Of a DNA stretch of 64,000 bases, positions 9,378 to 63,558 are shown in pieces. The DNA is taken from IMG/VR virus record IMGVR_UViG_3300010403_000021, positions 1-64,000 of that record. The stretch is one strand, 5' to 3'. This DNA comes from a virus. Its lineage: Duplodnaviria; Heunggongvirae; Uroviricota; Caudoviricetes. Each line of letters starts with the position of its first letter. Position 1 is the first letter of the stretch. The position numbers and the translations under genes were made by a program. Under the pieces are notes generated by a model. That model did not search any database, was not told the DNA's origin, and saw nothing but the letters and a program-made list of their open reading frames with translations.

Positions 9378-10199
9378 ATGTCTAAAATACTAGTAATGGG
9401 CGATATTCATGGAAACTGGACTTGGACAAAAAAGATTATCGATGTAGCTGTTGCTGAAGACATCGATAAAATTATTCAAGTTGGTGACTTTGGAGTTTGG
9501 CCAGGTCCGGAAGGTAGAGAATATCTTTTGATTCTATCCAGATATCTAGTAAAGAAAAGCAAAAAGCTGGGTAGACAAGTTAATCTATATTTTCTGCCGG
9601 GAAATCACGAAGACTACAATCAAATCGATCAGTGGATGCTGAACATCAAACCAAATGAATATGGACACCGAGAGATCGAACCTAATCTTTTCTATACCGG
9701 TAAAGTAAATAGTTGGATTTGGGAAGGTAAAAAGTTCGGTGTGGTTGGTGGTGCAGTATCCATTGATAGACGTAGTCGTAAACTCAATGAATCATGGTGG
9801 CCGCAGGAGGTTCTTACTTCTGAAGAAATTCATCAGGCAAAAGAACTAGGCAAAGTCGATTATCTATTCACACATGATTGTCCAACACAACATCCATTCA
9901 ACTTTCTGATTGATCACCTTGACTCCACTATTCATCGTCAGTTCATGACTGACATTGCCAGAGTACTGAAGCCAGAAGCATGGTTCCACGGTCACTATCA
10001 TCACTATGCGGAGTATTTATTTCATCATGGTACCGGAGTGACCCCAGTTTATTCTCTGGATGCTGACGTACGTGCTACACACTCTCCAAGTCTTCAGCGT
10101 CATACGGTTGTGCTGGACGTAGAGACTGGTGTAGTATCCAGCATAGACAAGCAGTTCGAGTGGTTCGGTCAGAGATTCTATTTTGATAGGGAGCGTTAA
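9378..10199 (+). CDS. calcineurin-like metallophosphoesterase (lambda-PPase-type Ser/Thr phosphatase fold)
   Basis: GDIHGN, GDFG, GNHE motifs. Confidence 0.65.
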   Translation: MSKILVMGDIHGNWTWTKKIIDVAVAEDIDKIIQVGDFGVWPGPEGREYLLILSRYLVKKSKKLGRQVNLYFLPGNHEDYNQIDQWMLNIKPNEYGHREIEPNLFYTGKVNSWIWEGKKFGVVGGAVSIDRRSRKLNESWWPQEVLTSEEIHQAKELGKVDYLFTHDCPTQHPFNFLIDHLDSTIHRQFMTDIARVLKPEAWFHGHYHHYAEYLFHHGTGVTPVYSLDADVRATHSPSLQRHTVVLDVETGVVSSIDKQFEWFGQRFYFDRER

Positions 10200-10200
10200 G

Positions 10201-10938
10201 ATGATGCATTCCAGTCTTGGTATGCGTATGAAAGAATATGAAAAGAATCTGGCTACAGATAATGGTGTCAATATCATTCGTCTTGACGGAAAGGCTTTTC
10301 ATACATGGACCAAAAAGATTACTGGAAACAAGAATCCTTTTAGTTCAGTGATTCATGAATGTATGGTTACGGCAACAATAGAATTAGCCAAGGAAGTGCA
10401 AGGATTTAAGCTTGCATATACACAATCAGATGAAACTACGCTACTTATGGAAAATATTAATGAAAAAACTGAAGCGTGGTTCGGTGGCAAGACGCACAAA
10501 ATTACTAGTGTTGCCGCGTCTATTTTTACTTATGCTTTTAATAATCGTTTTAAGTATTACATTGGTACTTTTGGCTATCCAGATATTCCTGCCTACTTTG
10601 ATGCTCGTGTTCATTCTATTCCAGTAGAAGACGCACCGAATAATTTTGTATGGCGTCAGAAAGACTGGAATCGTAATTCAATTCAAATGCTTGGCCAGTA
10701 CTATCTTCCTCGTAATGAGATGCAAAATCTTTCTAACACTCAAGTTCTTGAGTATCTTAGAGAATTAAGAGATATTGATTGGAATGATCTTGATGATTGG
10801 AAGAAGTATGGGACTTTCATTGCTAAGAATCATCTAGATTCAGAATCATATGGTCCTTATGTTGCATTTTCAGATTATCTAGATTATAAAGATATCGCAA
10901 TTCATGCAGGCATTCACAATTATATTGATTGGGATTAA
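10201..10938 (+). CDS. Thg1-like protein (tRNA-His guanylyltransferase family 3'-5' nucleotidyl transferase)
   Basis: KEYEK..IIRLDGKAFH and AYTQSDETTLL match Thg1 N-terminal and catalytic SDE motifs; SD AGGGAG before ATG 10201. Confidence 0.75.
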   Translation: MMHSSLGMRMKEYEKNLATDNGVNIIRLDGKAFHTWTKKITGNKNPFSSVIHECMVTATIELAKEVQGFKLAYTQSDETTLLMENINEKTEAWFGGKTHKITSVAASIFTYAFNNRFKYYIGTFGYPDIPAYFDARVHSIPVEDAPNNFVWRQKDWNRNSIQMLGQYYLPRNEMQNLSNTQVLEYLRELRDIDWNDLDDWKKYGTFIAKNHLDSESYGPYVAFSDYLDYKDIAIHAGIHNYIDWD

Positions 10939-14513: not shown

Positions 14514-14560
14514 CTACGAGTCAATATGGCGGTTCGAATCCGTAAGGGAAACATATTGAT
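14514..14560 (+). other. 8-bp hairpin TCAATATG/CATATTGA whose loop contains a tRNA T-loop-like GGTTCGAATCC
   Basis: perfect inverted repeat; no acceptor/anticodon arms; sits between two tRNAs. Confidence 0.3.
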
Positions 14561-15177: not shown

Positions 15178-15180
15178 GAG

Positions 15181-15249
15181 GCCCTTTAGTTTAATAGCAA
15201 AACCACGGTGTTACATACCGTAGTAGAGGGGGCAGAACCTTCAAGGGCT
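15181..15249 (+). tRNA. putative tRNA-Val (anticodon TAC) with atypical T-loop (GGCAGAA, no TTCGA)
   Basis: acceptor GCCCTT/AAGGGC, perfect anticodon stem ACGGT/ACCGT loop GTTACAT; T-arm non-canonical. Confidence 0.35.
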
Positions 15250-15265
15250 ACTCATATTACTGAAA

Positions 15266-24611: not shown

Positions 24612-24760
24612 GGGTGACTGAAGTGGAACCCTCACATAAACTTATGGACCGATAAAAATTGTTTATCCTACACAACCTGCGGGTTATGGGTTCGAATCCC
24701 ATCTTGTAGCTCAAGTGGCAGAGCAGCAGTCAAAACAAACGATTTTAACCCACATGTCCA
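24612..24760 (+). other. degenerate tRNA-like region: canonical T-arm ATGGGTTCGAATCCCAT (24686-24702) and a D-arm-like TAGCTCAAGTGGCAGAGC (24707-24724) without completable cloverleaves
   Basis: motifs seen; acceptor/anticodon stems could not be paired; ORF-free. Confidence 0.25.
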
Positions 24761-29433: not shown

Positions 29434-29438
29434 AAGTA

Positions 29439-29506
29439 ATCCGTTTAGTATAATGGTATTGCACCGGTACCCATCGGTAATACGGGTTCGATTCCCGTAG
29501 CGGATT
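29439..29506 (+). tRNA. tRNA, anticodon ambiguous (loop region GTACCCAT; Gly-like ACC/CCC possible)
   Basis: acceptor ATCCGTT/AGCGGAT, T-arm ACGGGTTCGATTCCCGT; anticodon stem ACCG(G)/(T)CGGT gives a 6- or 8-nt loop. Confidence 0.45.
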
Positions 29507-29528
29507 ATTCAACAAGAGGAGTAATGTA

Positions 29529-30026: not shown

Positions 30027-30620
30027 ATGGAAGAGACATGGAAAGAATTTTATAAAGGATATTTTATATCTAATCTAGGCAGAGTCAGAAGAAATTACGG
30101 TCCTAGACTTAATAACGAAGGGTTTTGTTATTTAAAACCTTTTCTAACAAAAAGTAGAAAAGCCATGAGCTTTGTTATAAAGCCTAAACATGACCCTTTT
30201 AAGGCCTATCAGGTTCATAACTTAGTGTCTAAGTATTTTATGACTCCCCCTAAACGTGGGGAGTTTATTAGACATAAAGATGGCGATGCCCGAAATAATA
30301 GAGTAGATAATTTAGAATATTATAGAAGATCTAGAAAGCCTTATATCAGTAATGATGGTTATAGAAGAATTCATGATTTTGACCATCCCAATTCTGATTC
30401 AGAAGGATGGTTGGCTGAACATAGGTATGTTATGTCAAAATCCCTCAATAGACCATTGAGACCTAGTGAAAATGTCCACCATATTAATGGCATAAGATCC
30501 GATAATAGATTAGAGAATCTGGAATTATGGGTTTCTCATCAACCAAGAGGACAACGCCCAATTGATTTAGTTGAATGGGCTAAAGAAATCTTAGATATAT
30601 ATGGCGATGAAGTTGGCTAA
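30027..30620 (+). CDS. HNH homing endonuclease (NUMOD4-like N-terminus + HNH)
   Basis: YFISNLGRVRR NUMOD4-type motif; HHINGIRSDNRLENLELW..HQ HNH motif. Confidence 0.65.
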   Translation: MEETWKEFYKGYFISNLGRVRRNYGPRLNNEGFCYLKPFLTKSRKAMSFVIKPKHDPFKAYQVHNLVSKYFMTPPKRGEFIRHKDGDARNNRVDNLEYYRRSRKPYISNDGYRRIHDFDHPNSDSEGWLAEHRYVMSKSLNRPLRPSENVHHINGIRSDNRLENLELWVSHQPRGQRPIDLVEWAKEILDIYGDEVG

Positions 30621-31173
30621 CACAAGAGTTCTTTTAAAATGCCATCACGGCTCTCATCTTTATGGGCTTTCGACCCCAACATCCGACCTTGATTACTATG
30701 AGATATTTGAATATCCTTGGCAAAAATATAGACCAAGAAAACAAGTATCTCAGGTAATCAAGGACGATGTTGATTTAACTGAAACATCGTTGGATAGATT
30801 CCAAGACATGTGTTTTAAAGGTATCCCTCAATCATTGGAAGCATTATTTGCCGGTGAGCAACACTGGGTGAAATATCATACTTCATGGTATGATAAACGT
30901 GAATCAATTGAGAACAATCTTCATATTTATCATATGGATATTATTGAAACATATAAAAGAACAGCCTTGAACTTCTTTTTGAAAGATGATTTCAAAAAGA
31001 ATAGACATGCTTTCAGACTTATGCATAATATCAATGAATTCAAACAGTGTGGCAGATTTGACCCAACATTAAATATAAATACGCGCGAGTCCATTACTCG
31101 AACTGCCGTGTTGCCCCGACAACGGCGTGAAGAAATCTTTTTGGATCTCTTTTATAATACTTTCTATCAATAA
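30601..31173 (+). CDS. minimal nucleotidyltransferase (pol-beta superfamily) domain protein
   Basis: HGSHLYGLSTPTSDLDY = hG[GS]x9-13 D h D NTase signature. Confidence 0.5.
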   Translation: MAMKLANTRVLLKCHHGSHLYGLSTPTSDLDYYEIFEYPWQKYRPRKQVSQVIKDDVDLTETSLDRFQDMCFKGIPQSLEALFAGEQHWVKYHTSWYDKRESIENNLHIYHMDIIETYKRTALNFFLKDDFKKNRHAFRLMHNINEFKQCGRFDPTLNINTRESITRTAVLPRQRREEIFLDLFYNTFYQ

Positions 31174-31192
31174 ACAATCTTATGGGGATTTA

Positions 31193-32260
31193 ATGTATAT
31201 CAGCAATTTACTAGATGCGGAGCTACTTGGTAGTCACATCCGCAATGGATATGTCACGGCAAGGCGACACCCACATTTGCCGTTGACTATTCTTAACTAC
31301 ACGCCTAAAGCTCAGTATGAGCAAATGTGGGACGAAGTGACTACACGATGCCGTGGTCTCGTTGTTGATAATAAAGGTGAAATCGCGGCAAACTGTATGT
31401 ATAAGTTTTTTAACTATGGTGAGCCTAATGCCAAAGACATTGATTTATCAGGCCCGGTACAAGTTACCGACAAGCTTGATGGATCTATGGGCCTGGTAGC
31501 TTTTTATGAGGATGTTTTATTTACCGCAACTCGTGGTTCCTTTGAGTCCGAACAGGCTCAATTTGCCTACGATCATATTATGAAGACTCCAGGTTATGCT
31601 GATGCTTTTCATACTATTTGTGGTAATTCTGTTACCGCTGTCGTAGAGATCATCTATCCGGAAAACCGTATTGTGGTTGATTATGGTGAAATGCGCGATG
31701 TTGTTTTAATCGGTGCTATTGCCAACAATGAACTATCAAATGGTCGTCAATTATGGATTCCTGCGGATAAGTTTTATTCTTGGCCTGGTCCACGTGTTGA
31801 GAAGTTCAATGCAAAGACTTTTGAAGATGCTTTACGTATTCCTCCTAGAATCAATAAGGAAGGTATCGTAGTATACTTTGAAAACACCGGGGATAGACTA
31901 AAGTTAAAGCAGCAGGATTATCTAATTGCCCATAAGTTTGTGTCTAATTTAACACCAAAGAATGTATGGCAGCAATTACATGATGGCAATACTTTAGAGA
32001 ATTTGCTTGAAATGGCACCGGATGAATTTCACGATACAGTTAGAGAATATGTAGCAAGTATACAGAAGAGTTTTGACCATCTGTTAAGGTTGGTCAATAT
32101 TGAGTTTGATAAAATAGACAGATCATTAACTCCAGGCTATTCACGTAAGGACTTTGCGTTAGCAGTAGCAAAGAATCCTTACAGAGGTCATCTGTTCCAT
32201 GTGCTTGACCAACGTAGTGACTTGCTGGTAGAGTCTGTCTGGAAGGCCATCCAACCTTAA
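31193..32260 (+). CDS. rnlA: RNA ligase 1 (T4 RnlA-like tRNA repair ligase)
   Basis: CRGLVVD...KFFNYGE parallels T4 Rnl1 CRGIMFE...KFFNLNE; adenylation motif I TDKLDGS (KxDG). Confidence 0.7.
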   Translation: MYISNLLDAELLGSHIRNGYVTARRHPHLPLTILNYTPKAQYEQMWDEVTTRCRGLVVDNKGEIAANCMYKFFNYGEPNAKDIDLSGPVQVTDKLDGSMGLVAFYEDVLFTATRGSFESEQAQFAYDHIMKTPGYADAFHTICGNSVTAVVEIIYPENRIVVDYGEMRDVVLIGAIANNELSNGRQLWIPADKFYSWPGPRVEKFNAKTFEDALRIPPRINKEGIVVYFENTGDRLKLKQQDYLIAHKFVSNLTPKNVWQQLHDGNTLENLLEMAPDEFHDTVREYVASIQKSFDHLLRLVNIEFDKIDRSLTPGYSRKDFALAVAKNPYRGHLFHVLDQRSDLLVESVWKAIQP

Positions 32261-32269
32261 GGAAGTAAA

Positions 32270-32650
32270 ATGGTTTTAACCAGATTAACCGTTATAATTA
32301 TGATCGTACTAAGTATCTTCAATCCGTCATTATGGCTTTGGACGATTATTGCTTTAGTTATTGTAGAGCTTGACTGGATCTCAGTACGATCTTATTATAA
32401 GAATAAAGTTAAGATAGTAGAAAAACCAGTAGAAACTATTAAGTTTAAAGATTCTCCAATTCAGCAAAATAAAATTAATGAACTTGAAAGCAAGCTGGTC
32501 ATTTCTAAAACTTCGGTTGAAGGTCAGCTTGCTTATCAAACCAAAGAAATTAATAGATTAATCAAAGAAAACGCTAGCTTATCCATACTGGTCGAAAAGC
32601 AAGCTATTCAAATCGATGAACTAAAGGAACAAAATGTTTCCGATTCTTGA
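32270..32650 (+). CDS. membrane-anchored coiled-coil protein
   Basis: two N-terminal TM helices then coiled coil. Confidence 0.4.
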   Translation: MVLTRLTVIIMIVLSIFNPSLWLWTIIALVIVELDWISVRSYYKNKVKIVEKPVETIKFKDSPIQQNKINELESKLVISKTSVEGQLAYQTKEINRLIKENASLSILVEKQAIQIDELKEQNVSDS

Positions 32651-33581
32651 GATTTACCAGGGGCTACCCGCTTCTGGTAAGTCCACTCAAGCTAAGCTAG
32701 AAGTAGAAAAAGATCTAGGTAATACAATCAGAGTGAATCGTGATCTGATTCGTGTTATGCTTCATAACAATATCTTTGATCGTAAGCTAACTGAACCACG
32801 CACTATTGCCGCCAGAAATACCTTGATTCGTGATGGACTAAAGCGCGGCGTTCGTGTAATTTGCGACGATACCAATCTTGATCCAAGAGTTGTCAAGGAT
32901 CTTATCAATATTGCTGAATTCTTCGGGGCTGAGGTTCGTATTACTCAGTTTGATGTTGATGTAAACGAATGTATTCGACGTGACAAGGCAAGAGCAGATC
33001 TGCCGGGTGAAGTTTCGGTAGGTGAAAAGGTTATTCGTGGAATGGTGAAGAACTATTTCGTTGACGGAAAGTTTCCTGAAAAGGCTGCTGAAGTCAAGGG
33101 AATTAGTTTTGCACCAGCGGTTAAATCATATGATAATTGGCTAGCGGTAATTTTCGATATTGATGGAACACTGGCTGACCATAAGGGAATTCGTTCACCG
33201 TATGACTATACAAAGGTCATCAAGGACCGGCCACGAGTAGCTGTTATCAAGGCCCTTCGCATGTATGCAAAGGCTGGTTATAAAATTATTATTTGTTCCG
33301 GCCGGGAAGATTTCTGTCGGGAAGATACAATTAAGTGGCTTGATCACCACCTTAGTTCTGTTGATGGCAATGGTGATATTGTCAAGGTTTCATATGATCT
33401 ATACATGCGTCCAACTGGAGATAAGCGTCAGGATCGCATTATCAAGGGTGAAATCTTTGATAAGCATATTCGTGATCATTGGGACATTGAAATGGTTTAC
33501 GACGATCGTGATCAAGTTATTGGGCTTTGGCGTGACGAATTGAAGCTTGATACTTGTCAAGTTAATTGGGGTGATTTCTAA
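32634..33581 (+). CDS. pnkp: polynucleotide 5'-kinase/3'-phosphatase (T4 Pnkp-like)
   Basis: N-terminal Walker A GLPASGKST; C-terminal HAD motif I IFDIDGTLA; same domain order as T4 Pnkp. Confidence 0.75.
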   Translation: MFPILEIYQGLPASGKSTQAKLEVEKDLGNTIRVNRDLIRVMLHNNIFDRKLTEPRTIAARNTLIRDGLKRGVRVICDDTNLDPRVVKDLINIAEFFGAEVRITQFDVDVNECIRRDKARADLPGEVSVGEKVIRGMVKNYFVDGKFPEKAAEVKGISFAPAVKSYDNWLAVIFDIDGTLADHKGIRSPYDYTKVIKDRPRVAVIKALRMYAKAGYKIIICSGREDFCREDTIKWLDHHLSSVDGNGDIVKVSYDLYMRPTGDKRQDRIIKGEIFDKHIRDHWDIEMVYDDRDQVIGLWRDELKLDTCQVNWGDF

Positions 33582-34750: not shown

Positions 34751-35335
34751 ATGGAACAATATACTCACGACCAGCGCAAAGCACTACGTGAAATCGACTG
34801 GACACGCAACGTACGCCCAGAGTTCAAAGGCTTGACTAACGACCAGATCAGGGCTAAGCTGGCACCGGTACGAAACAACCTAGTGTTTGCCTTTAATAAT
34901 GCTCTGAGAGATTTCAATTTCGGTGGCATTATTAGAGTGTCAAATGCTTTTGCGTGTAGATCAGTTATCTATTCAGGCTTTAGAAAATATGATCCACGTG
35001 GTGCAGTTGGTACTCTTAATTATGAAGATATTTATCATTTTCCTTCAATTGAAGACTTCAAGGCAATTATCATGAATTATCAAAACTTGGGTTATAGCTT
35101 TGTTGTAGCCGAATCAGACATGTATGATAAGTCAGTGCTTCTACCTCATTTTCGCTGGGATGATAAGACTGTTCTTATGCTAGGTGAGGAAGGTACTGGA
35201 GTACCTGAAGAGTTTATTGATATGGCTGATGTTGTTGTTACTATTCCTCAAGTAGGAAGTGTCAATAGCATGAACGTTGCCAGCACCGCCCATATTCTAG
35301 CCTATGATTATATGAAATCTACAGGAAGGTTCTAA
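34751..35335 (+). CDS. SpoU/TrmH-class (SPOUT) RNA 2'-O-methyltransferase
   Basis: LMLGEEGTGVPEEF and VVTIPQVGSVNSMNVASTAHILAYDY match SpoU motifs 2 and 3. Confidence 0.65.
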   Translation: MEQYTHDQRKALREIDWTRNVRPEFKGLTNDQIRAKLAPVRNNLVFAFNNALRDFNFGGIIRVSNAFACRSVIYSGFRKYDPRGAVGTLNYEDIYHFPSIEDFKAIIMNYQNLGYSFVVAESDMYDKSVLLPHFRWDDKTVLMLGEEGTGVPEEFIDMADVVVTIPQVGSVNSMNVASTAHILAYDYMKSTGRF

Positions 35336-47475: not shown

Positions 47476-47700
47476 ATGTTTAATGTACTGGAGATTGAAA
47501 TGGCGCTTATCAAGAACGGTTTCACCAAGATCATTCAGGGCGTTGAGTTTGTTCTGATTGGTGACACGATGGAAGTTATCAAGGATTACGTTCTTGTTGA
47601 CACTATTGATTGCACTGAGGATGGACTTCCGACTGTAAACACCGAATACGATTTCGATATGACTGCCATGTGGTGGCTGTACGAATACAACATGATTTAA
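47476..47700 (+). CDS. hypothetical protein
   Basis: SD GGAGGGG. Confidence 0.4.
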   Translation: MFNVLEIEMALIKNGFTKIIQGVEFVLIGDTMEVIKDYVLVDTIDCTEDGLPTVNTEYDFDMTAMWWLYEYNMI

Positions 47701-47708
47701 GGATAAAA

Positions 47709-48308
47709 ATGGATCTATTCGAGGCCTGGCCCAAAACTGCACGTGGTTTTGGGCCAGCTCTTTACACAGAAAAGCTTGATGGCTCAAATGTGGCTGTTAT
47801 CTTTGAACGTCGTTATGGTACTGAAGCATTTGCCGATATGAATAACGTTGTCATTAAAGATACAAACACCGGTGAATTGTTTATTATTCATGTGGCAGCC
47901 CAGACACGTACTCAAATGGCCTTTATTGAAGATGATCAAGTTGGTATTGCACAATGGGTTGCAGATCGTAAGTATAGTTTGGTTCGCGATCTATATAATT
48001 TCAACCGTGGTGCTGATCTTGAACGTCATTATGGTGAGTATGTCAAGGGCAAAGGTCTCAAAGTTCCACATGTCTTTCTGTTCAATGCTTACCGTTGGCG
48101 TGAGGCTGAGTTTGCCACTGAGGGGCTATCGGTTGTGCCGGTACTCTATGAGGGCGAACACTCTTACGAACAGCTTACAGACACGCTGAGAGACCTTGAG
48201 CTTAACGGCTCACGAGTGCTTGACTCACCAGCGGAAGGCGTGATAGTCTTCCACAAGAACGACAAGACATCCAAAAAGTACTTCTGCCAAGGACAAGGAC
48301 GAAAATAA
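47709..48308 (+). CDS. putative nucleotidyltransferase/ligase-like protein with KxDG motif
   Basis: YTEKLDGSNVAV resembles ligase/capping-enzyme motif I; short (199 aa). Confidence 0.3.
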   Translation: MDLFEAWPKTARGFGPALYTEKLDGSNVAVIFERRYGTEAFADMNNVVIKDTNTGELFIIHVAAQTRTQMAFIEDDQVGIAQWVADRKYSLVRDLYNFNRGADLERHYGEYVKGKGLKVPHVFLFNAYRWREAEFATEGLSVVPVLYEGEHSYEQLTDTLRDLELNGSRVLDSPAEGVIVFHKNDKTSKKYFCQGQGRK

Positions 48309-51525: not shown

Positions 51526-51933
51526 ATGTCTATTATAGAAGATGAACATACTGATTTTGTAGACGCAATGCGCAGCATTGTTGAAGCGCATCCAGACGTG
51601 ATCTACAAGCCAATGAGGAATTTCTATTTCTATAGTGATGGTAGTCCTGCTTGTTTGTTTGGTCACATATTCTTTCAACTAGGCATTACTCTTGATGACA
51701 TTGCTTATGCAACCAGCAATAACGTTAAGCTTATTGATGAAAGTATGCGTCTTGATCCAAACAGCGCTCGAATTCGTTTCGTTCTCAAGAGTCTTGGTTA
51801 TACTGAAAACTTCTATTCCGTTGCTGAAGTTGCTCAGATCTACCAGGATGAAAAGAAGAAATGGTCAGAAGTTCTAGAGGAATTTCGACTTGGACTTGTT
51901 CAGCGTGGGATTGCCAATATGTATTGGAGGTGA
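51526..51933 (+). CDS. hypothetical protein
   Basis: ORF. Confidence 0.4.
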   Translation: MSIIEDEHTDFVDAMRSIVEAHPDVIYKPMRNFYFYSDGSPACLFGHIFFQLGITLDDIAYATSNNVKLIDESMRLDPNSARIRFVLKSLGYTENFYSVAEVAQIYQDEKKKWSEVLEEFRLGLVQRGIANMYWR

Positions 51934-51937
51934 TCAC

Positions 51938-52168
51938 ATGCTAACACAACCAGAAATGCGTCTTAGTGATGATGGAATGATAGCCCATAAAGTCTCTGAG
52001 GATGAAGAGGATATATCCGGGGAGCAAAGAAATTGGGTTATCGCCTATGTTCCTTTACCGGAACGACTCTATGACGCTTGGATAGGTTTTCCATTGTACG
52101 ATTATGAAGTTGAGGATTGGATGATTCTTCCCAACTTCCCCGCATTGGTTGATTGTATTGAAAGCTGA
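51938..52168 (+). CDS. acidic hypothetical protein
   Basis: internal ATG of track ORF 51890. Confidence 0.35.
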   Translation: MLTQPEMRLSDDGMIAHKVSEDEEDISGEQRNWVIAYVPLPERLYDAWIGFPLYDYEVEDWMILPNFPALVDCIES

Positions 52169-53659: not shown

Positions 53660-54850
53660 TGGGGCCTAGCTTTGCCTTAGAGCGTTTGCACATGCAAAAC
53701 AGGCTGCTATTCGCCCTCTAAGGCGTTGGGGTGGTCCTACCCATACAAAGACCCTAGGAAGCTATAAAAGTCGCTCTATGGCGAACATACAGGCCTTTAA
53801 GGGGCATTGTGGAGCACCTCGGCTCACACGCGTGCACAGGTGCATGATTGGACGTACTGATCAGTAACATGCGCACGCCATGTGCAGTAGCAAATCTGAC
53901 CAATTTCTAAGCCTGTGACCAGCGGAAACTCCGTCAGCGGCCTAACGCCGTTGGGGTGGTATGGATGTACCGGGGAAGGCTTTAAAGCGCTTAGCGTGGC
54001 TCTGAGAGGCCTTTACGGCGATATGGCCAGTCGACGCCTAGAGCATCAAATATGGTAACAACGCGGTAACTTATACATCAGTGGTCTATGCATCAAATGT
54101 TGATCAAGCTCTGACCTGCACAAACACCGTTAGCAAAAGAAAATCCTTGACTCAATGGGGGCCTGTGGTGCGTACTTGTGGAGCACCACGAACACCACAA
54201 CTCAAAACGCCAGACACGGGAACCCTTAGACGTCAAGGGTTTGAGAGCTAGTAGCAACACTACGTGTCACGGATACCGAGTTGACAGCCTAAACTGAATT
54301 TGCTACCTTTAAGGCCCCGCAAGGGGACGCACCACCCGCTAGCTCCCCAAAAGGGAACTTGGAAGCCTCACGACACGGCTTAGGGACGATTGAACTTTGA
54401 GAACTCAATAGCGAGCAAAGCCTAGTGAACAGGTGCGCTGATTACACGGACAGTCCCCGTGTACACCATTACCCTTGCGGGATGCAAGCGTGGCAGCAAT
54501 AGACCGAAGCGACTAGGGAGGCAATCCGACATATATTGTCCAAGCGTTCCGAGTATGCGAGTGCCGGACCAATCATGAGTCCCCCGCATAAATCCGCTTG
54601 GATAAAGATTATGAGGAATGTCTGACATAAGGTAAATCGCTTAGGGGCCGGTGATCCGCCCAATGCGCTTAAGACATATAGCGATTACCTGGCAGTATGG
54701 GATACCAGGTTTGGGGAATCAAATAAAGGTTTCCGGTGGTTCGATTCCACTCACTCTCACTAGCCCATTGGTGTATAAGCCTGACATTAAATCGGGAAAG
54801 CACAGTCATTCCCTAAAAAGGAGTGAGAGACCGGAATTAACCGGATGGGT
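53660..54850. other. ~1.2-kb GC-rich region without credible ORFs; contains repeated CGTTGGGG(TGG) motifs and a tRNA T-arm-like GGTGGTTCGATTCCACT (54735-54751)
   Basis: six-frame track shows only short or low-complexity ORFs; repeats at ~53649, 53722, 53947. Confidence 0.5.
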
Positions 54851-55880: not shown

Positions 55881-56240
55881 ATGTACGAAGACGCGCATTT
55901 GGATGCCTCTTATGAGGATCGTTTCGCTGATGAGGTCTACTTTGGTAACGGACCTGATTGGGACCTACGCGATTTTGACGATTTTGATAACGACGAAAAC
56001 GAATGTGAGGGGCACGAAAGTCTGAACGGTGGCGACATGGGAGTTACCCGCTACTGTGACGGCTCTTGTGTGGTTTCAGCCGCTCCATTGCATTCGGATT
56101 CCACACAGATTCACCGCGCTGCCAATGGTCACACCATGAGCTATCGAGTCAAGCCCAATGGTGACCTCAGTCAGCATGATGCGACATGCGTTTACGATTG
56201 TCGTGCGTGTCAGAATGGTGATCAGCGTCCGGATTGGTAA
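55881..56240 (+). CDS. acidic Cys-rich hypothetical protein
   Basis: internal ATG of track ORF 55797. Confidence 0.4.
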   Translation: MYEDAHLDASYEDRFADEVYFGNGPDWDLRDFDDFDNDENECEGHESLNGGDMGVTRYCDGSCVVSAAPLHSDSTQIHRAANGHTMSYRVKPNGDLSQHDATCVYDCRACQNGDQRPDW

Positions 56241-56312
56241 AGCTTTTAATTCCCTCGGTTTAGCCGTGGCATTCAATTGCAAGGGAATTGTTTCCAATGA
56301 AAGGTGACAACA

Positions 56313-56690
56313 ATGGGAACTCCTAAGATCAATAGCACCGACGCCGCGTTCATTTACACTTTGGGCATGGTGGTCGGTGCTAACCCTGACAAGATCTACA
56401 CCATGCCCAATGAAATTGGGTGTGCCTACGTGCACCATGTCGACGGTGGTGGCCTGTGTGACGGCTGTCTGATCGGGACGGTACTCGTCAAGATGGGTGT
56501 GCCACGTGAGTGGTTCATTGAGGTAGACGCCAACACTGGCAAGGGTGCTGGTCTGGTGTTGGCGCAGTTCGGTTTCAGTCGTGAAATCGGCATCGCTGCT
56601 GATCGAGCGCAGAACGTGCAAGATGGCGGATCACCGTGGTGGCGAGCCGGTGAGGAATTCCTTTACACCTACGCTCAAATCAAGGCCTAG
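56313..56690 (+). CDS. hypothetical protein
   Basis: ORF. Confidence 0.45.
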   Translation: MGTPKINSTDAAFIYTLGMVVGANPDKIYTMPNEIGCAYVHHVDGGGLCDGCLIGTVLVKMGVPREWFIEVDANTGKGAGLVLAQFGFSREIGIAADRAQNVQDGGSPWWRAGEEFLYTYAQIKA

Positions 56691-56813
56691 CAACAAAGTC
56701 GGGCGCGACTTTAAACACGCCGGACGGATAATGGTTAATAGGGTTCATGGCCTATTCAAAGGTTCGATTCCTTTGGTCCGTACTCATGTAAAAGCTAAAT
56801 TGGAGGAAAGTAA

Positions 56814-57296
56814 ATGGCTCTTAGGTCCATTACCTCTTACATGTCAGGGGCTTTCAAGAGTCCTGGTGACCTTTTCAATGATGCTTTCGAATTCCTGGCA
56901 GATAAGGAATTCGATACGATGATCGGGACCGGTCTTTCCGGATCACTGATCATTCCGGTTTTGGCCAGGGAATTCGGTTCAGATTTCAATTGGGCCATCA
57001 TTCGCAAAGATCCTGGCAGCTCTCATGCCTCTACCGAATTGGAAGGGTATATCGGTAAGCGTTGGATTTTTGTAGATGATCTGATCGATTCCGGCGCAAC
57101 TTTGAAGCGTGTTAAGCAGGTGGTTGCTGATCGCTGCAAGGCTAATTCCTACTGGGACGGACATAAGACCGAATATGTGGGTACGTACCTTTACCACACA
57201 CGGCGTTGGTATCCCGCTGATCACCAGGTGGGCTATTACGTGAATTGCCGTTGTTTGACGTGTGATGCCTTAGAATCACGTCGTTACTCCTACTGA
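56814..57296 (+). CDS. type I phosphoribosyltransferase-domain protein
   Basis: RWIFVDDLIDSGATL PRPP-binding motif; GTGLSGSLIIPVLA flexible-loop region. Confidence 0.6.
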   Translation: MALRSITSYMSGAFKSPGDLFNDAFEFLADKEFDTMIGTGLSGSLIIPVLAREFGSDFNWAIIRKDPGSSHASTELEGYIGKRWIFVDDLIDSGATLKRVKQVVADRCKANSYWDGHKTEYVGTYLYHTRRWYPADHQVGYYVNCRCLTCDALESRRYSY

Positions 57297-57310
57297 ACAA
57301 AAAGTAAATA

Positions 57311-57423
57311 GAGGATATAGTTCAATTGGATTAGAATAACTAGCATAAGATACATCCCCACACATTGAATTGGGATGAATAGCTTATGTTAGATAGATGA
57401 GGGTTCGAGTCCCTCTATCCTCG
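57311..57423 (+). ncRNA. AT-rich extended tRNA-like gene (113 nt): perfect acceptor GAGGATA/TATCCTC, D-arm, T-arm GAGGGTTCGAGTCCCTC; anticodon position replaced by a 10-bp stem plus inner hairpin
   Basis: folded by eye; 10-bp helix CTAGCATAAG/CTTATGTTAG encloses ATCCC-13nt-GGGAT. Confidence 0.4.
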
Positions 57424-57879
57424 CTACCCTTAATGGGTATTGTTAAATAGTTCGGCTTCCCGCGCTTTTGCCCGGAAAACAAGTGTAAGCCCGAATGCGA
57501 ATAGCATTGGTCACTAGGTTGGCTACTACGGTCCCAATCGACACGGCTGTATGCGTGATTCGAGCCGTCAATTACCTTGCTCATGTGCATATACTCTATG
57601 ACGGTAAAGAGTTGGAAAGTGTGCACCGTAGGCGTTATCGATTGCGCGACAATATAAATGTCGGTGTGGAGACGCAAAGTCCAATGCGCTATCAATATGG
57701 TCATTGACCTGACAGTTAGCACTAGGGCGATACCACTTGAGTGGGAGTCAGAGAAACATAAGCAATTGATAAGCGACCTTTAGGAGATAATAAAAACAAG
57801 CGGCGGTTATATCATTATATTATGGTATCGCTAAGTGCGGGACAAATAAACAAAACCCGCTTTAACGAAAGGCGTAACA

Positions 57880-58107
57880 ATGGATCTTGCTAAAGTGCAA
57901 AAGCTAAATGCCGCTGCACATTCTCTTGATTCTTGGGTAGAGACGCTAGCGTTTTACGTTGAAAATCCTACGGCGGTTCCGAATAGAGCGGCTACCACGT
58001 TTGCAACACGTGAGGAATTCATTGAGCACATCGGTTGCATGATTGGACACTATCAAGACGAATTCAATGCCGCGTACAACGATATTCCGGAATGGGTGAG
58101 TAAATGA
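57880..58107 (+). CDS. hypothetical protein
   Basis: ORF. Confidence 0.45.
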   Translation: MDLAKVQKLNAAAHSLDSWVETLAFYVENPTAVPNRAATTFATREEFIEHIGCMIGHYQDEFNAAYNDIPEWVSK

Positions 58108-58589
58108 CTAAGCTGACTCCCGCTGCCAAGCGTTATGCGCTGGAATTGGTCAAGCGCCGGAAGATTCAAGATGAGCACGCAAATTGCGTTCAGCCTGGTT
58201 TTGTCGTCAGATACGGCGTGCGGCTCAATGACAATGATGAATTTGTCGAGCGTCCTTACAGCGTGCCAACGTATGAAACCGACCATCACAATAACTGCCA
58301 ACTGGCACGCATCATTCCCCGGAACTACTGCCGACACGGAAATTTTGTTGGCGACCCGTGGGGACCTGATTACATGTGCGGGTTTTGTGAGAATGGAGAC
58401 GATCTCTCACTGTATGAAATCGCATTGGACGATGCGAGAGAACATCAGCGGCGTCTCACCGAACACGTGGTTGAACGCGCACAAAAGGCAGTGCTAGAGG
58501 AACTAGTTTCGATCTATAAAGCCGATGCCAATATGGCCGAATGGATTGACCCTGATGTAATCGCAAAGTTGGTCCGCGCTGGTGACTGA
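58104..58589 (+). CDS. Cys/His-rich hypothetical protein
   Basis: ATGA overlap. Confidence 0.45.
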   Translation: MTKLTPAAKRYALELVKRRKIQDEHANCVQPGFVVRYGVRLNDNDEFVERPYSVPTYETDHHNNCQLARIIPRNYCRHGNFVGDPWGPDYMCGFCENGDDLSLYEIALDDAREHQRRLTEHVVERAQKAVLEELVSIYKADANMAEWIDPDVIAKLVRAGD

Positions 58590-63162: not shown

Positions 63163-63558
63163 ATGAACCTGACGCGTGAATCAATCGGTGATGCTTTGGA
63201 CGTCTATGCTAAGCATCATGGCTCTACGGTCTATGAAATGCCGGGGTCAGAGTGCAAGTATGTCGAATGGGATTTTGACACTTGCACTTTGGTTGGTGGT
63301 TGTCTCTACGGGCATGTCATGACGGATCTAGGGATGTCTCTGGAGACGCTGGCAGACAACTGGGAAGGCAAAGAAATTAATGCCATTCTCAAGTCATACG
63401 GTGTCGATGACGCACGACTGATCAATGCAGCCTTGTGCAGTCAAAGGGTGCAAGACACGTGCGAATTGAGTTGGGCACATGCCGTACAGACGTTTCACGC
63501 AATTCTAGAACTCGGTACGCGTGACATCGATGCAAATGCCATCTATGGCAATGATTGA
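63163..63558 (+). CDS. hypothetical protein
   Basis: ORF. Confidence 0.45.
   Translation: MNLTRESIGDALDVYAKHHGSTVYEMPGSECKYVEWDFDTCTLVGGCLYGHVMTDLGMSLETLADNWEGKEINAILKSYGVDDARLINAALCSQRVQDTCELSWAHAVQTFHAILELGTRDIDANAIYGND

Follow-up and report, generated by a model that had tools for sequence, protein, structure and literature searches.

Short inserts in the tRNA genes of large phages have been noticed before. The tRNA 'introns' of the Lak megaphages, which are described as identical across cohorts and as occurring in Phe, Gly, Thr, and Tyr tRNAs, were reported to be conserved and were termed 'enigmatic', with a splicing mechanism that was stated to be unknown (10.1101/356790). This preprint was the only treatment of such inserts that our literature search returned, and a described mechanism was not found. 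Here we report on a 113-nt element in a 64,000-nt stretch of DNA (positions 1 to 64,000 of the IMG/VR virus record IMGVR_UViG_3300010403_000021, hereafter the window), which is part of a large phage with a genome of about 139 kb. The element is a real, well-formed interrupted tRNA gene with a class-I body, and it is a new member, unrelated in sequence, of a class that was noticed earlier and never explained.

Like the Lak genes, the element is too long for bacterial tRNA finders and resolves into a tRNA plus an insert only under intron-aware settings, although its phage belongs to an unrelated lineage (the inserts were compared by description only). A second precedent is found in Vibrio phage KVP40, whose annotated 'tRNA-Pseudo-5' is 91-100% identical across 20 KVP40-like phage records. 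Genes of the KVP40 type resemble the element in being oversized (about 105-125 nt, some of them 113) with normal acceptor, D, and T arms, in residing in large tRNA-rich phages, and in carrying a short insert (15-68 nt), such that Rfam aligns them as full tRNAs and ARAGORN recovers them only in its intron mode. However, these genes occur several per genome within arrays, whereas the element is solitary, stands outside the array, and holds a different insert.

Three other systems share some of these properties. In archaeal and eukaryal precursor tRNAs a short anticodon-loop insert pairs with the anticodon, as it does in the element, and PNKP and an Rnl1-type ligase are encoded in the same genome. 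In contrast to those precursors, the element has no bulge-helix-bulge, no splicing endonuclease was found among the 41 open reading frames (ORFs) of the window covered by a Pfam scan (ten of them in the neighborhood of the element), and placing the insert at the canonical 37/38 position gives an unlikely AAG anticodon on a class-I body. YrlA RNAs are circularly permuted, with a closed acceptor end and with their 5′ and 3′ ends in a long helix (PMC4201824; 10.1101/312249). These Ro60-bound Y RNAs are similarly tRNA-shaped and non-decoding, with the anticodon stem turned into a long helix, and the phage studied here encodes a Ro60 protein. The element differs in being unpermuted, with open acceptor ends and a closed arm, and the Rfam YrlA model (RF02553) gave no match to it at E<=10. 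Finally, group I introns of bacterial tRNAs interrupt the anticodon loop of a bacterial-type tRNA, as the insert does, but they are catalytic and longer than 200 nt, whereas the insert spans 36-38 nt and has no Rfam intron match. T4 rnaC and rnaD were also considered as analogues and were set aside, as Rfam matches a tRNA in neither.

A tRNA gene interrupted in its anticodon loop

The element begins 14 nt past the stop codon of an ORF for a phosphoribosyltransferase (PRTase)-like protein (Table 1), exactly as the initial annotation of this DNA had placed it. Rfam aligns it to the tRNA model RF00005 over model positions 1-71 with a score of 43.9 bits (gathering score 29; E = 4.9e-6 in a search of the whole window), setting 47 nt opposite 9 model positions and leaving 45 nt in place of the 7-nt anticodon loop. 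The perfect 7-bp acceptor stem, D arm, and canonical T arm of the initial annotation are borne out by this match and by the sequence: the acceptor stem GAGGAUA/UAUCCUC has 7 of 7 pairs, the D stem GUUC/GAAU is accompanied by G18G19, and the bases that form tertiary pairs in tRNAs (U8-A14, A15-U48, U54-A58, and G53-C61) are readable in the sequence.

The unconstrained minimum free energy (MFE) fold of the element is a cloverleaf of -37.7 kcal/mol (z -4.83) that none of 200 shuffled sequences equaled, which gives thermodynamic support to the proposed tRNA-like shape. Its anticodon arm continues as a 10-bp helix (57340-57349/57383-57392) that leads through a 3x5 internal loop into a 6-bp hairpin with a 13-nt loop (57353-57377). 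The initial annotation was right about the helix and the 13-nt loop and counted one pair too few, 5 bp, in the inner hairpin. Folded alone, the arm reaches -18.6 kcal/mol (z -4.93). All pairs are intact, 21 of them in the tRNA stems and 16 in the arm.

ARAGORN does not call the element when run without introns at bacterial settings. Its intron mode reports a tRNA-Lys(ctt) with the insert i(37,36) at the default threshold, and the same mode made no call in 1.92 Mb of shuffled window sequence. Because the element matches a tRNA model, folds non-randomly, and is recovered by a search that yields nothing in shuffled DNA, we consider the observation real rather than a product of chance. The suggestion that it might be an interrupted tRNA, by a small insertion or an intron, is supported by the 45-nt loop of the Rfam alignment and by the dependence of ARAGORN on its intron mode.

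As transcribed, the element cannot read a codon because its anticodon loop holds a 36-base hairpin. A normal tRNA would expose its anticodon in a 7-nt loop that has U33 and is closed by a 5-bp stem; here, the stem strands are 45 nt apart, and the candidate anticodon is buried in the helix, where AAG (57347-57349) is paired with CUU (57383-57385). We give about an even chance to the explanation that this gene yields an unspliced, non-decoding, tRNA-shaped product of 113 nt, which would be either a tRNA mimic or the output of a recently disabled gene. These two versions are weighted about equally.

The AT-rich composition of the element had been likened to that of the tRNA genes elsewhere in the genome, which proved incorrect: its GC content of 0.39 equals that of the genome backbone (0.39) and lies below that of all 27 array tRNAs (0.42-0.63, mean 0.50). 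Nor is the element a copy of any of these genes, with 66% identity to the most similar of them (Ala), 56% to the Lys genes, and 52% as the mean for the array. A tmRNA identity was rejected, given that the 3:70 pair is G-C and not G3:U70, that Rfam returned no tmRNA match, and that ARAGORN made merely a nonsensical permuted tmRNA call at its 80% threshold. Likewise rejected was a His, Asp, or Asn identity on the basis of body similarity, as the comparison set is biased and the isotype not clear.

Table 1. Positions in the window of the interrupted tRNA gene, its parts, its neighbors, and the genes for RNA-handling proteins.
Feature	Positions	Strand	Details or basis
Ro60/TROVE	5180-6784		
Thg1-like enzyme	10183-10938		
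RlaP nucleotidyltransferase	30601-31173		
Rnl1-family ligase	31127-32260		
PNKP	32634-33581		
SpoU methylase	34751-35335		
Second RNA ligase	47670-48308		
Degenerate tRNA-like piece, spacer before PRTase gene	56724-56782	+	sequence, fold, T-loop motif match
PRTase-like ORF, 160 aa	56814-57296 (stop ends 57296)	+	contains phosphoribosyl pyrophosphate (PRPP)-loop motif RWIFVDDLIDSGATL
Interrupted tRNA gene, 113 nt, discriminator G at 57423	57311-57423	+	Rfam, fold, ARAGORN intron mode
Acceptor 5′ strand (57311-57317), U8 A9, and D arm GUUC-AAUUGGAUUA-GAAU (57320-57337)	57311-57337	+	sequence, Rfam, MFE fold
Extended anticodon arm	57340-57392	+	MFE folds, whole element and arm alone
36-nt insert, ARAGORN placement (between positions 33 and 34 of CUU loop)	57347-57382	+	ARAGORN intron mode
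36-nt insert, alternative placement at 37/38, anticodon AAG (Leu)	57351-57386	+	ARAGORN, position forced
Variable loop UAGAU (5 nt), T arm GAGGG-UUCGAGU-CCCUC (57399-57415), acceptor 3′ strand (57416-57422), discriminator G	57394-57423	+	sequence, Rfam, fold
Trailer hairpin UACCC-UUAAU-GGGUA, directly 3′ of element	57425-57439	+	fold

Possible excisions of the insert

Two 36-nt excisions were obtained with ARAGORN. The placement that the program chooses leaves the loop AU-CUU-AU and the forced placement at 37/38 leaves AU-AAG-AU, with U33 and A37 in both. Since AAG and CUU are paired across the two strands, these solutions are equivalent, and the sequence does not fix the boundary. Either excision leaves two surplus bases between the D stem and the T stem, which take the form of a six-layer anticodon stem or of a doubled position 26 together with a 6-nt variable loop. 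The canonical register of the Rfam model (one base at position 26, a 5-bp stem, and a 5-nt variable loop) requires the removal of 38 nt, and enumeration of all junctions for this length gave U33 in none, with A or C in its place. No single excision appears to produce a fully canonical anticodon arm. Removal of 57350-57383, suggested initially as a check on whether a normal loop would return, does not restore one and leaves an 11-nt loop, or a 7-bp stem that lacks U33.

Other constructions were tried and rejected. No alternative anticodon arm inside the insert combines a stem with U33 and a variable loop, staggered cuts of the RNase III type do not give a 7-nt loop, and a tRNA built from the 'second D-arm copy' would lose its variable loop.

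The main rival to our preferred explanation is splicing to a tRNA-Lys, given the PNKP and the two RNA ligases that this phage encodes. A protein nuclease, which could be a host anticodon nuclease or some phage enzyme, would cut on both sides of the 36-nt insert, and PNKP and an RNA ligase would join the ends to form a working tRNA-Lys(CUU). We hold this possible but rather doubtful. It is consistent with the default-threshold ARAGORN solution, which is a tRNA-Lys(CUU) with U33 and A37, and with the pairing between insert and anticodon, as seen in archaeal and eukaryal tRNA introns. The 3′ junction of the ARAGORN solution falls exactly 5′ of the wobble base. PrrC cuts tRNA-Lys 5′ of the wobble base, and T4 Rnl1 reseals the RNA there. 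The window encodes an Rnl1-family ligase, PNKP, a second ligase, RlaP, a Thg1-like enzyme, and a SpoU methylase, a set of genes for RNA repair and tRNA handling that is unusually full and dense. To these points may be added that several insert-bearing tRNA genes of other phages keep canonical anticodon positions and an encoded CCA, and that the Lak tRNA 'introns' are reported to be conserved (10.1101/356790).

Several properties of the element nevertheless argue against splicing. The bulge-helix-bulge, a pair of 3-nt bulges set 4 bp apart on opposite strands so that the splice sites are exposed, is absent from both the MFE and the centroid fold, in which an unbroken 10-bp helix is followed by unpaired stretches that face each other as the 3x5 internal loop. 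The putative splice sites are found not in bulges but inside a continuous helix or at its end, with one junction lying inside. The product would have two bases too many for canonical geometry, and it would be redundant with three tRNA-Lys genes that ARAGORN finds in the array (two with CUU and one with UUU anticodons). The absence of a splicing endonuclease family from the 41 scanned ORFs also counts against splicing, with only part of the genome covered. Intron families in Rfam, group I included, gave no match at E<=10 over 56000-58500, and no enzyme system that handles short tRNA introns is known in bacteria or phages. Moreover, the discriminator is G73, which does not fit a Lys tRNA because A73 is a major identity element for lysyl-tRNA synthetase (PMC3014915). 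On a class-I body, G73 does not fit Leu either.

The wider class and the genomic setting

A pattern scan for the D-arm type of the element, followed after 45-75 nt by a T loop, yielded 14 viral and 60 metagenome loci, many of which are two adjacent normal tRNAs. Single tRNA genes with anticodon-loop inserts of 15-68 nt number about 30 distinct cases, mostly in phage-like contigs. At least five insert-bearing tRNA genes that share a common module are present at the KVP40 locus, and other contigs carry two to four insert-bearing genes each. Some of these genes, such as Asn-GUU and Ile-UAU in contig L027, have the insert at 37/38, a sensible anticodon, and an encoded CCA. The module, present in 19 inserts, is 32 nt long and opens with a hairpin whose loop reads about CUGAYAAG and whose stem shows compensatory changes at 6 of 6 pairs; an invariant C-N-G-C(A) comes next, and no description of it was found in the literature searched. 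Its carriers are unrelated large-phage contigs (L025, which is Vibrio phage KVP40, and L027, L028, L033, L034, L040, L042, L047, and L068), with several copies per genome in different tRNA isotypes.

The element belongs to this class by description, in that it joins a full tRNA body to an anticodon-loop insert of tens of nucleotides in a large tRNA-rich phage. It stands outside the KVP40-type family because a covariance model built from the 19 modules (R1) found no match in 57311-57423 at E<=10 with filters off. At the aligned position of the module, the element has UAGCU instead of CAGCA. We also note that insert-bearing tRNA genes in four metagenome contigs (L044, L049, L060, and L073) have the anticodon UUA after excision, which is of the ochre-suppressor type.

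The neighboring PRTase-like protein matches phrog_2068, 'phosphoribosyl transferase', with an E-value of 5e-30 and contains the PRPP-loop motif VDDLIDSGATL; it may be a type I phosphoribosyltransferase. Its score against Pfam PF00156 is 23.4 bits, under the cut-off of 26.3. Similarity to hypoxanthine phosphoribosyltransferases in the PDB is confined to the PRPP-loop region (E-values 0.4 or worse), as is that to NCBIfam models, with scores far under the cut-offs. Homologues of the protein (37-51% identity) were found at 12 loci in viral contigs and public assemblies, and a tRNA or tRNA-like element is adjacent to none of them. Because of these 12 loci, the adjacency of the PRTase gene and the element looks incidental, and a 'tRNA-like regulatory RNA', one of the options initially listed, is unsupported as far as a tie to the PRTase gene is concerned. 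Any co-transcribed tRNA shape would still be a site for RNase P. In three viral contigs from soil, Pistol ribozymes with scores of 65.8 and 56.6 bits lie 0.6-1.5 kb on the upstream side of genes for PRTase homologues (L005, 1754-1819; L006 and L009, 1499-1564 and 2370-2435).

The spacer before the PRTase gene holds a degenerate tRNA-like piece that ends 31 nt before the start codon, such that the gene is bracketed by two tRNA-like structures. This piece lacks a D arm; its acceptor-like stem and its T arm are each of 6 bp, the T loop is a canonical UUCGAUU, and its hairpin has the loop GUUCAUGG. Rfam gives it no tRNA match at E<=10, and ARAGORN calls it at the 80% threshold only. The arrangement invites the explanation that the flanking structures punctuate the PRTase mRNA as sites for RNase P and RNase Z and so set free an mRNA with defined ends, with only the acceptor and T-arm half of each being of consequence. 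The bracketing is tight (31 nt to the start codon and 14 nt from the stop codon), each of the two pieces has an aberrant anticodon part but retains a canonical T loop on a 12-bp minihelix of acceptor and T stems, and tRNAs are interleaved with protein genes on one strand throughout the genome. Nevertheless, we find mRNA punctuation quite improbable, as the 12 other PRTase loci have no flanking tRNA-like element, a mere cleavage signal would have no use for the complete D arm and the strongly ordered insert of the downstream element, and the upstream fold barely exceeds chance (z -1.84).

Directly 3′ of the element is a trailer hairpin that might mark 3′ processing; a terminator scan at its position found nothing, and the hairpin is not a consensus terminator. 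The region 57424-57879 consists of 456 nt without a called gene, containing only a 70-aa ORF (57495-57707). Ordered RNA structure in these 456 nt was considered and rejected (z only -1.47). The 161-aa protein encoded downstream has no relatives in the viral contigs.

The window contains 29 occurrences of the T-loop motif GGTTCGANTCC, where about two are expected. Eight fall outside the 27 standard tRNA genes, which indicates that tRNA-derived pieces are common in this genome and counts in favor of the preferred, non-decoding explanation. Orphan T-arm motifs of this kind with flanking stems are present at 422-432, 1370-1380, 7720-7730, 14531-14541, and 54738-54748, and may be tRNA remnants or minihelix elements. 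At relaxed thresholds, ARAGORN also reports a tRNA with a 167-nt insert at 54506-54758 and one with an 11-nt insert at 7651-7741.

Such debris is pertinent to the explanation that the element is a dead gene, a tRNA knocked out by the 36-nt insertion (for example, through local duplication or slippage) that is functionless and so far undecayed. The element is solitary, 28 kb from the tRNA array, with the degenerate piece 530 nt upstream, several orphan T arms elsewhere, and the 456-nt stretch without a called gene on its 3′ side. The KVP40 annotators chose the label 'tRNA-Pseudo' for similar genes, and the search for homologues provided no evidence of conservation. The insert sequence has no other copy in the window, and its 3′ part weakly resembles the D-arm region of the element itself (equaled in 69 of 2000 shuffles, p about 0.03). 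However, this similarity is marginal, and a simple duplication would not yield a hairpin, whereas the structure of the insert is far beyond chance (z -4.9). All stems and tertiary-pair bases of the element are intact, while the nearby remnant has lost its D arm, and pairing is perfect despite a GC content of 0.39. Taken as a separate reading, a functionless gene is in our view an unlikely account of the element.

An attachment site was also among the options initially listed; it could be an attP or a scar left by integration into a tRNA gene. Genes for tRNAs are common integration targets, and GC content climbs from 0.39 to 0.49 near position 52000 and stays high through the end of the window; the element itself lies among small genes of this higher GC. 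The evidence otherwise makes an attachment site scarcely credible. The tRNA body is complete and not reduced to its 3′ part, families of integrases or recombinases matched none of the 41 ORFs scanned and are absent from the precomputed Pfam marks of called genes over about 9.6 kb beyond the window, and no direct repeats flanking the element were found. A 21-mer from its acceptor and T arms matches only unrelated tRNA-His genes in GTDB. Three phrog_572 paralogues (51526-51933, 56304-56690, and 63163-63558) straddle the change in GC, and because they span it, the GC-rich part is not obviously a foreign island.

The genome looks like that of a large lytic phage. Its rIIA-like protein has its closest relatives in Streptomyces phages (39% identity). 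The standard tRNA genes are spread over 0.5-29.5 kb and number 27, of which ARAGORN found 25 and Rfam alone the two at 489-559 and 15180-15250. These two have odd T loops, and their anticodons are probably UGU and UAC. The tRNA gene at 29438-29507 has a 6-nt anticodon loop, for which the ARAGORN output is '???' with the anticodon 'cc'. Within the array, directly 5′ of a tRNA-Gln gene, positions 24658-24746 (+) give a weak match to the Rfam YrlA model (28.5 bits against a cut-off of 69; E 0.05) and have the look of a permuted tRNA, with the T arm AUGGG-UUCGAAU-CCCAU followed by the D arm GCUC-AAGUGGCA-GAGC. Taken together with the Ro60/TROVE gene of the phage, this sequence is a candidate phage Y RNA.

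Two further, independent assemblies of the same phage include the element. An ENA contig (83.6 kb) and a Logan contig (6.5 kb) both begin exactly at 55893 and are identical to the window downstream of that position. The shared start at 55892/55893 suggests a strain-variable junction or a repeat that breaks assembly. Beyond the window, the ENA and Logan strains diverge.

Proposed fate of the transcript and its meaning

Under our preferred explanation, in which the RNA is neither spliced nor able to decode, the element would be transcribed within the PRTase message. Co-transcription is probable because the element starts 14 nt after the stop codon, on the same strand, without a usable promoter ahead of it. 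The only promoter-like hexamer match overlaps the tRNA sequence of the element, and a promoter was rejected on this account. All neighbors are on the same strand as well. By established tRNA-processing biology, RNase P cleavage would be expected at 57310/57311, with trimming of the 3′ end and addition of CCA as for any tRNA; the 5′ cut would also sever the PRTase mRNA at this point. According to the fold, the acceptor stem, the D and T arms, and the elbow can all form normally in the transcript. No anticodon is exposed because the AAG of the insert pairs with the CUU triplet and the helix ends in the 6-bp hairpin. An RNA of about 113 nt would persist in which a rod replaces the anticodon arm. 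If it serves as a mimic, tRNA-binding enzymes could bind it, and anticodon-directed nucleases would be unable to cut it. Against an old, decaying relic stand the intactness of the stems and the high order of the insert; for an accident, there are the solitary position, the tRNA debris nearby, and the marginal resemblance between insert and D arm.

Some observations weigh against this explanation. The loop that remains after excision of 36 nt, AU-CUU-AU with U33 and A37, passes the default threshold of ARAGORN, so there is some chance of a decoding product. The sensible anticodons at 37/38 and the encoded CCA of some insert-bearing genes in other phages suggest that such inserts may be removable. 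A function as a mimic or decoy is pure inference. The searches turned up no homologue of the element, whether among phage records and GTDB genomes or among viral and metagenome contigs, and the three assemblies that contain it (the window and the ENA and Logan contigs) have the same sequence across it, which leaves every functional claim made here tentative.

The searches for relatives were as follows. A blastn comparison of the locus and the element with 50,697 phage records returned nothing or matches to the T arm only. Exact scans of viral contigs found nothing for the 3′ half and the inner hairpin, and for the 5′ half only matches within coding sequences. Degenerate-pattern scans of such contigs gave no relative either. 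The GTDB matches to the acceptor/T-arm 21-mer are confined to Lachnospiraceae tRNA-His genes and are attributed to chance because these have a different D arm and C73. The insert-free allele AACTAGCATNNNATGTTAGA likewise matched coding sequences only.

The readings set out here were judged one at a time, and they overlap (a dead gene is also half of the preferred explanation), so their probabilities are not expected to sum to one. In our assessment, the element should be annotated as an interrupted tRNA-like gene; labels such as attachment site, PRTase regulator, or working tRNA-Lys should be avoided. Its genome has the right enzymes for testing whether phages splice short tRNA inserts or make non-decoding tRNA mimics.

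A more tentative reading, which we hold rather doubtful, is that the insert has a function in the contest between phage and host over tRNAs, either (a) as an intron that is resealed by PNKP and RNA ligase or (b) as a 'plug' that makes the RNA a decoy proof against anticodon nucleases. Should (a) be true, it would mark the first case outside archaea and eukaryotes of tRNA splicing by a heal-and-seal pathway; under (b), the plug would convert a Lys-like tRNA into an uncleavable decoy. In either case, the approximately 30 insert-bearing tRNA genes would constitute a functional class and not pseudogenes. Standard bacterial tRNA finders overlook such genes or tag them as 'pseudo', though they recur in many large phages. 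If their inserts are removed, phages would have an undescribed route of tRNA splicing, for which PNKP and the two RNA ligases are candidate parts. If the inserts are retained, these phages would produce non-decoding, tRNA-shaped RNAs, which would bear on how phages answer host defenses that cut tRNA.

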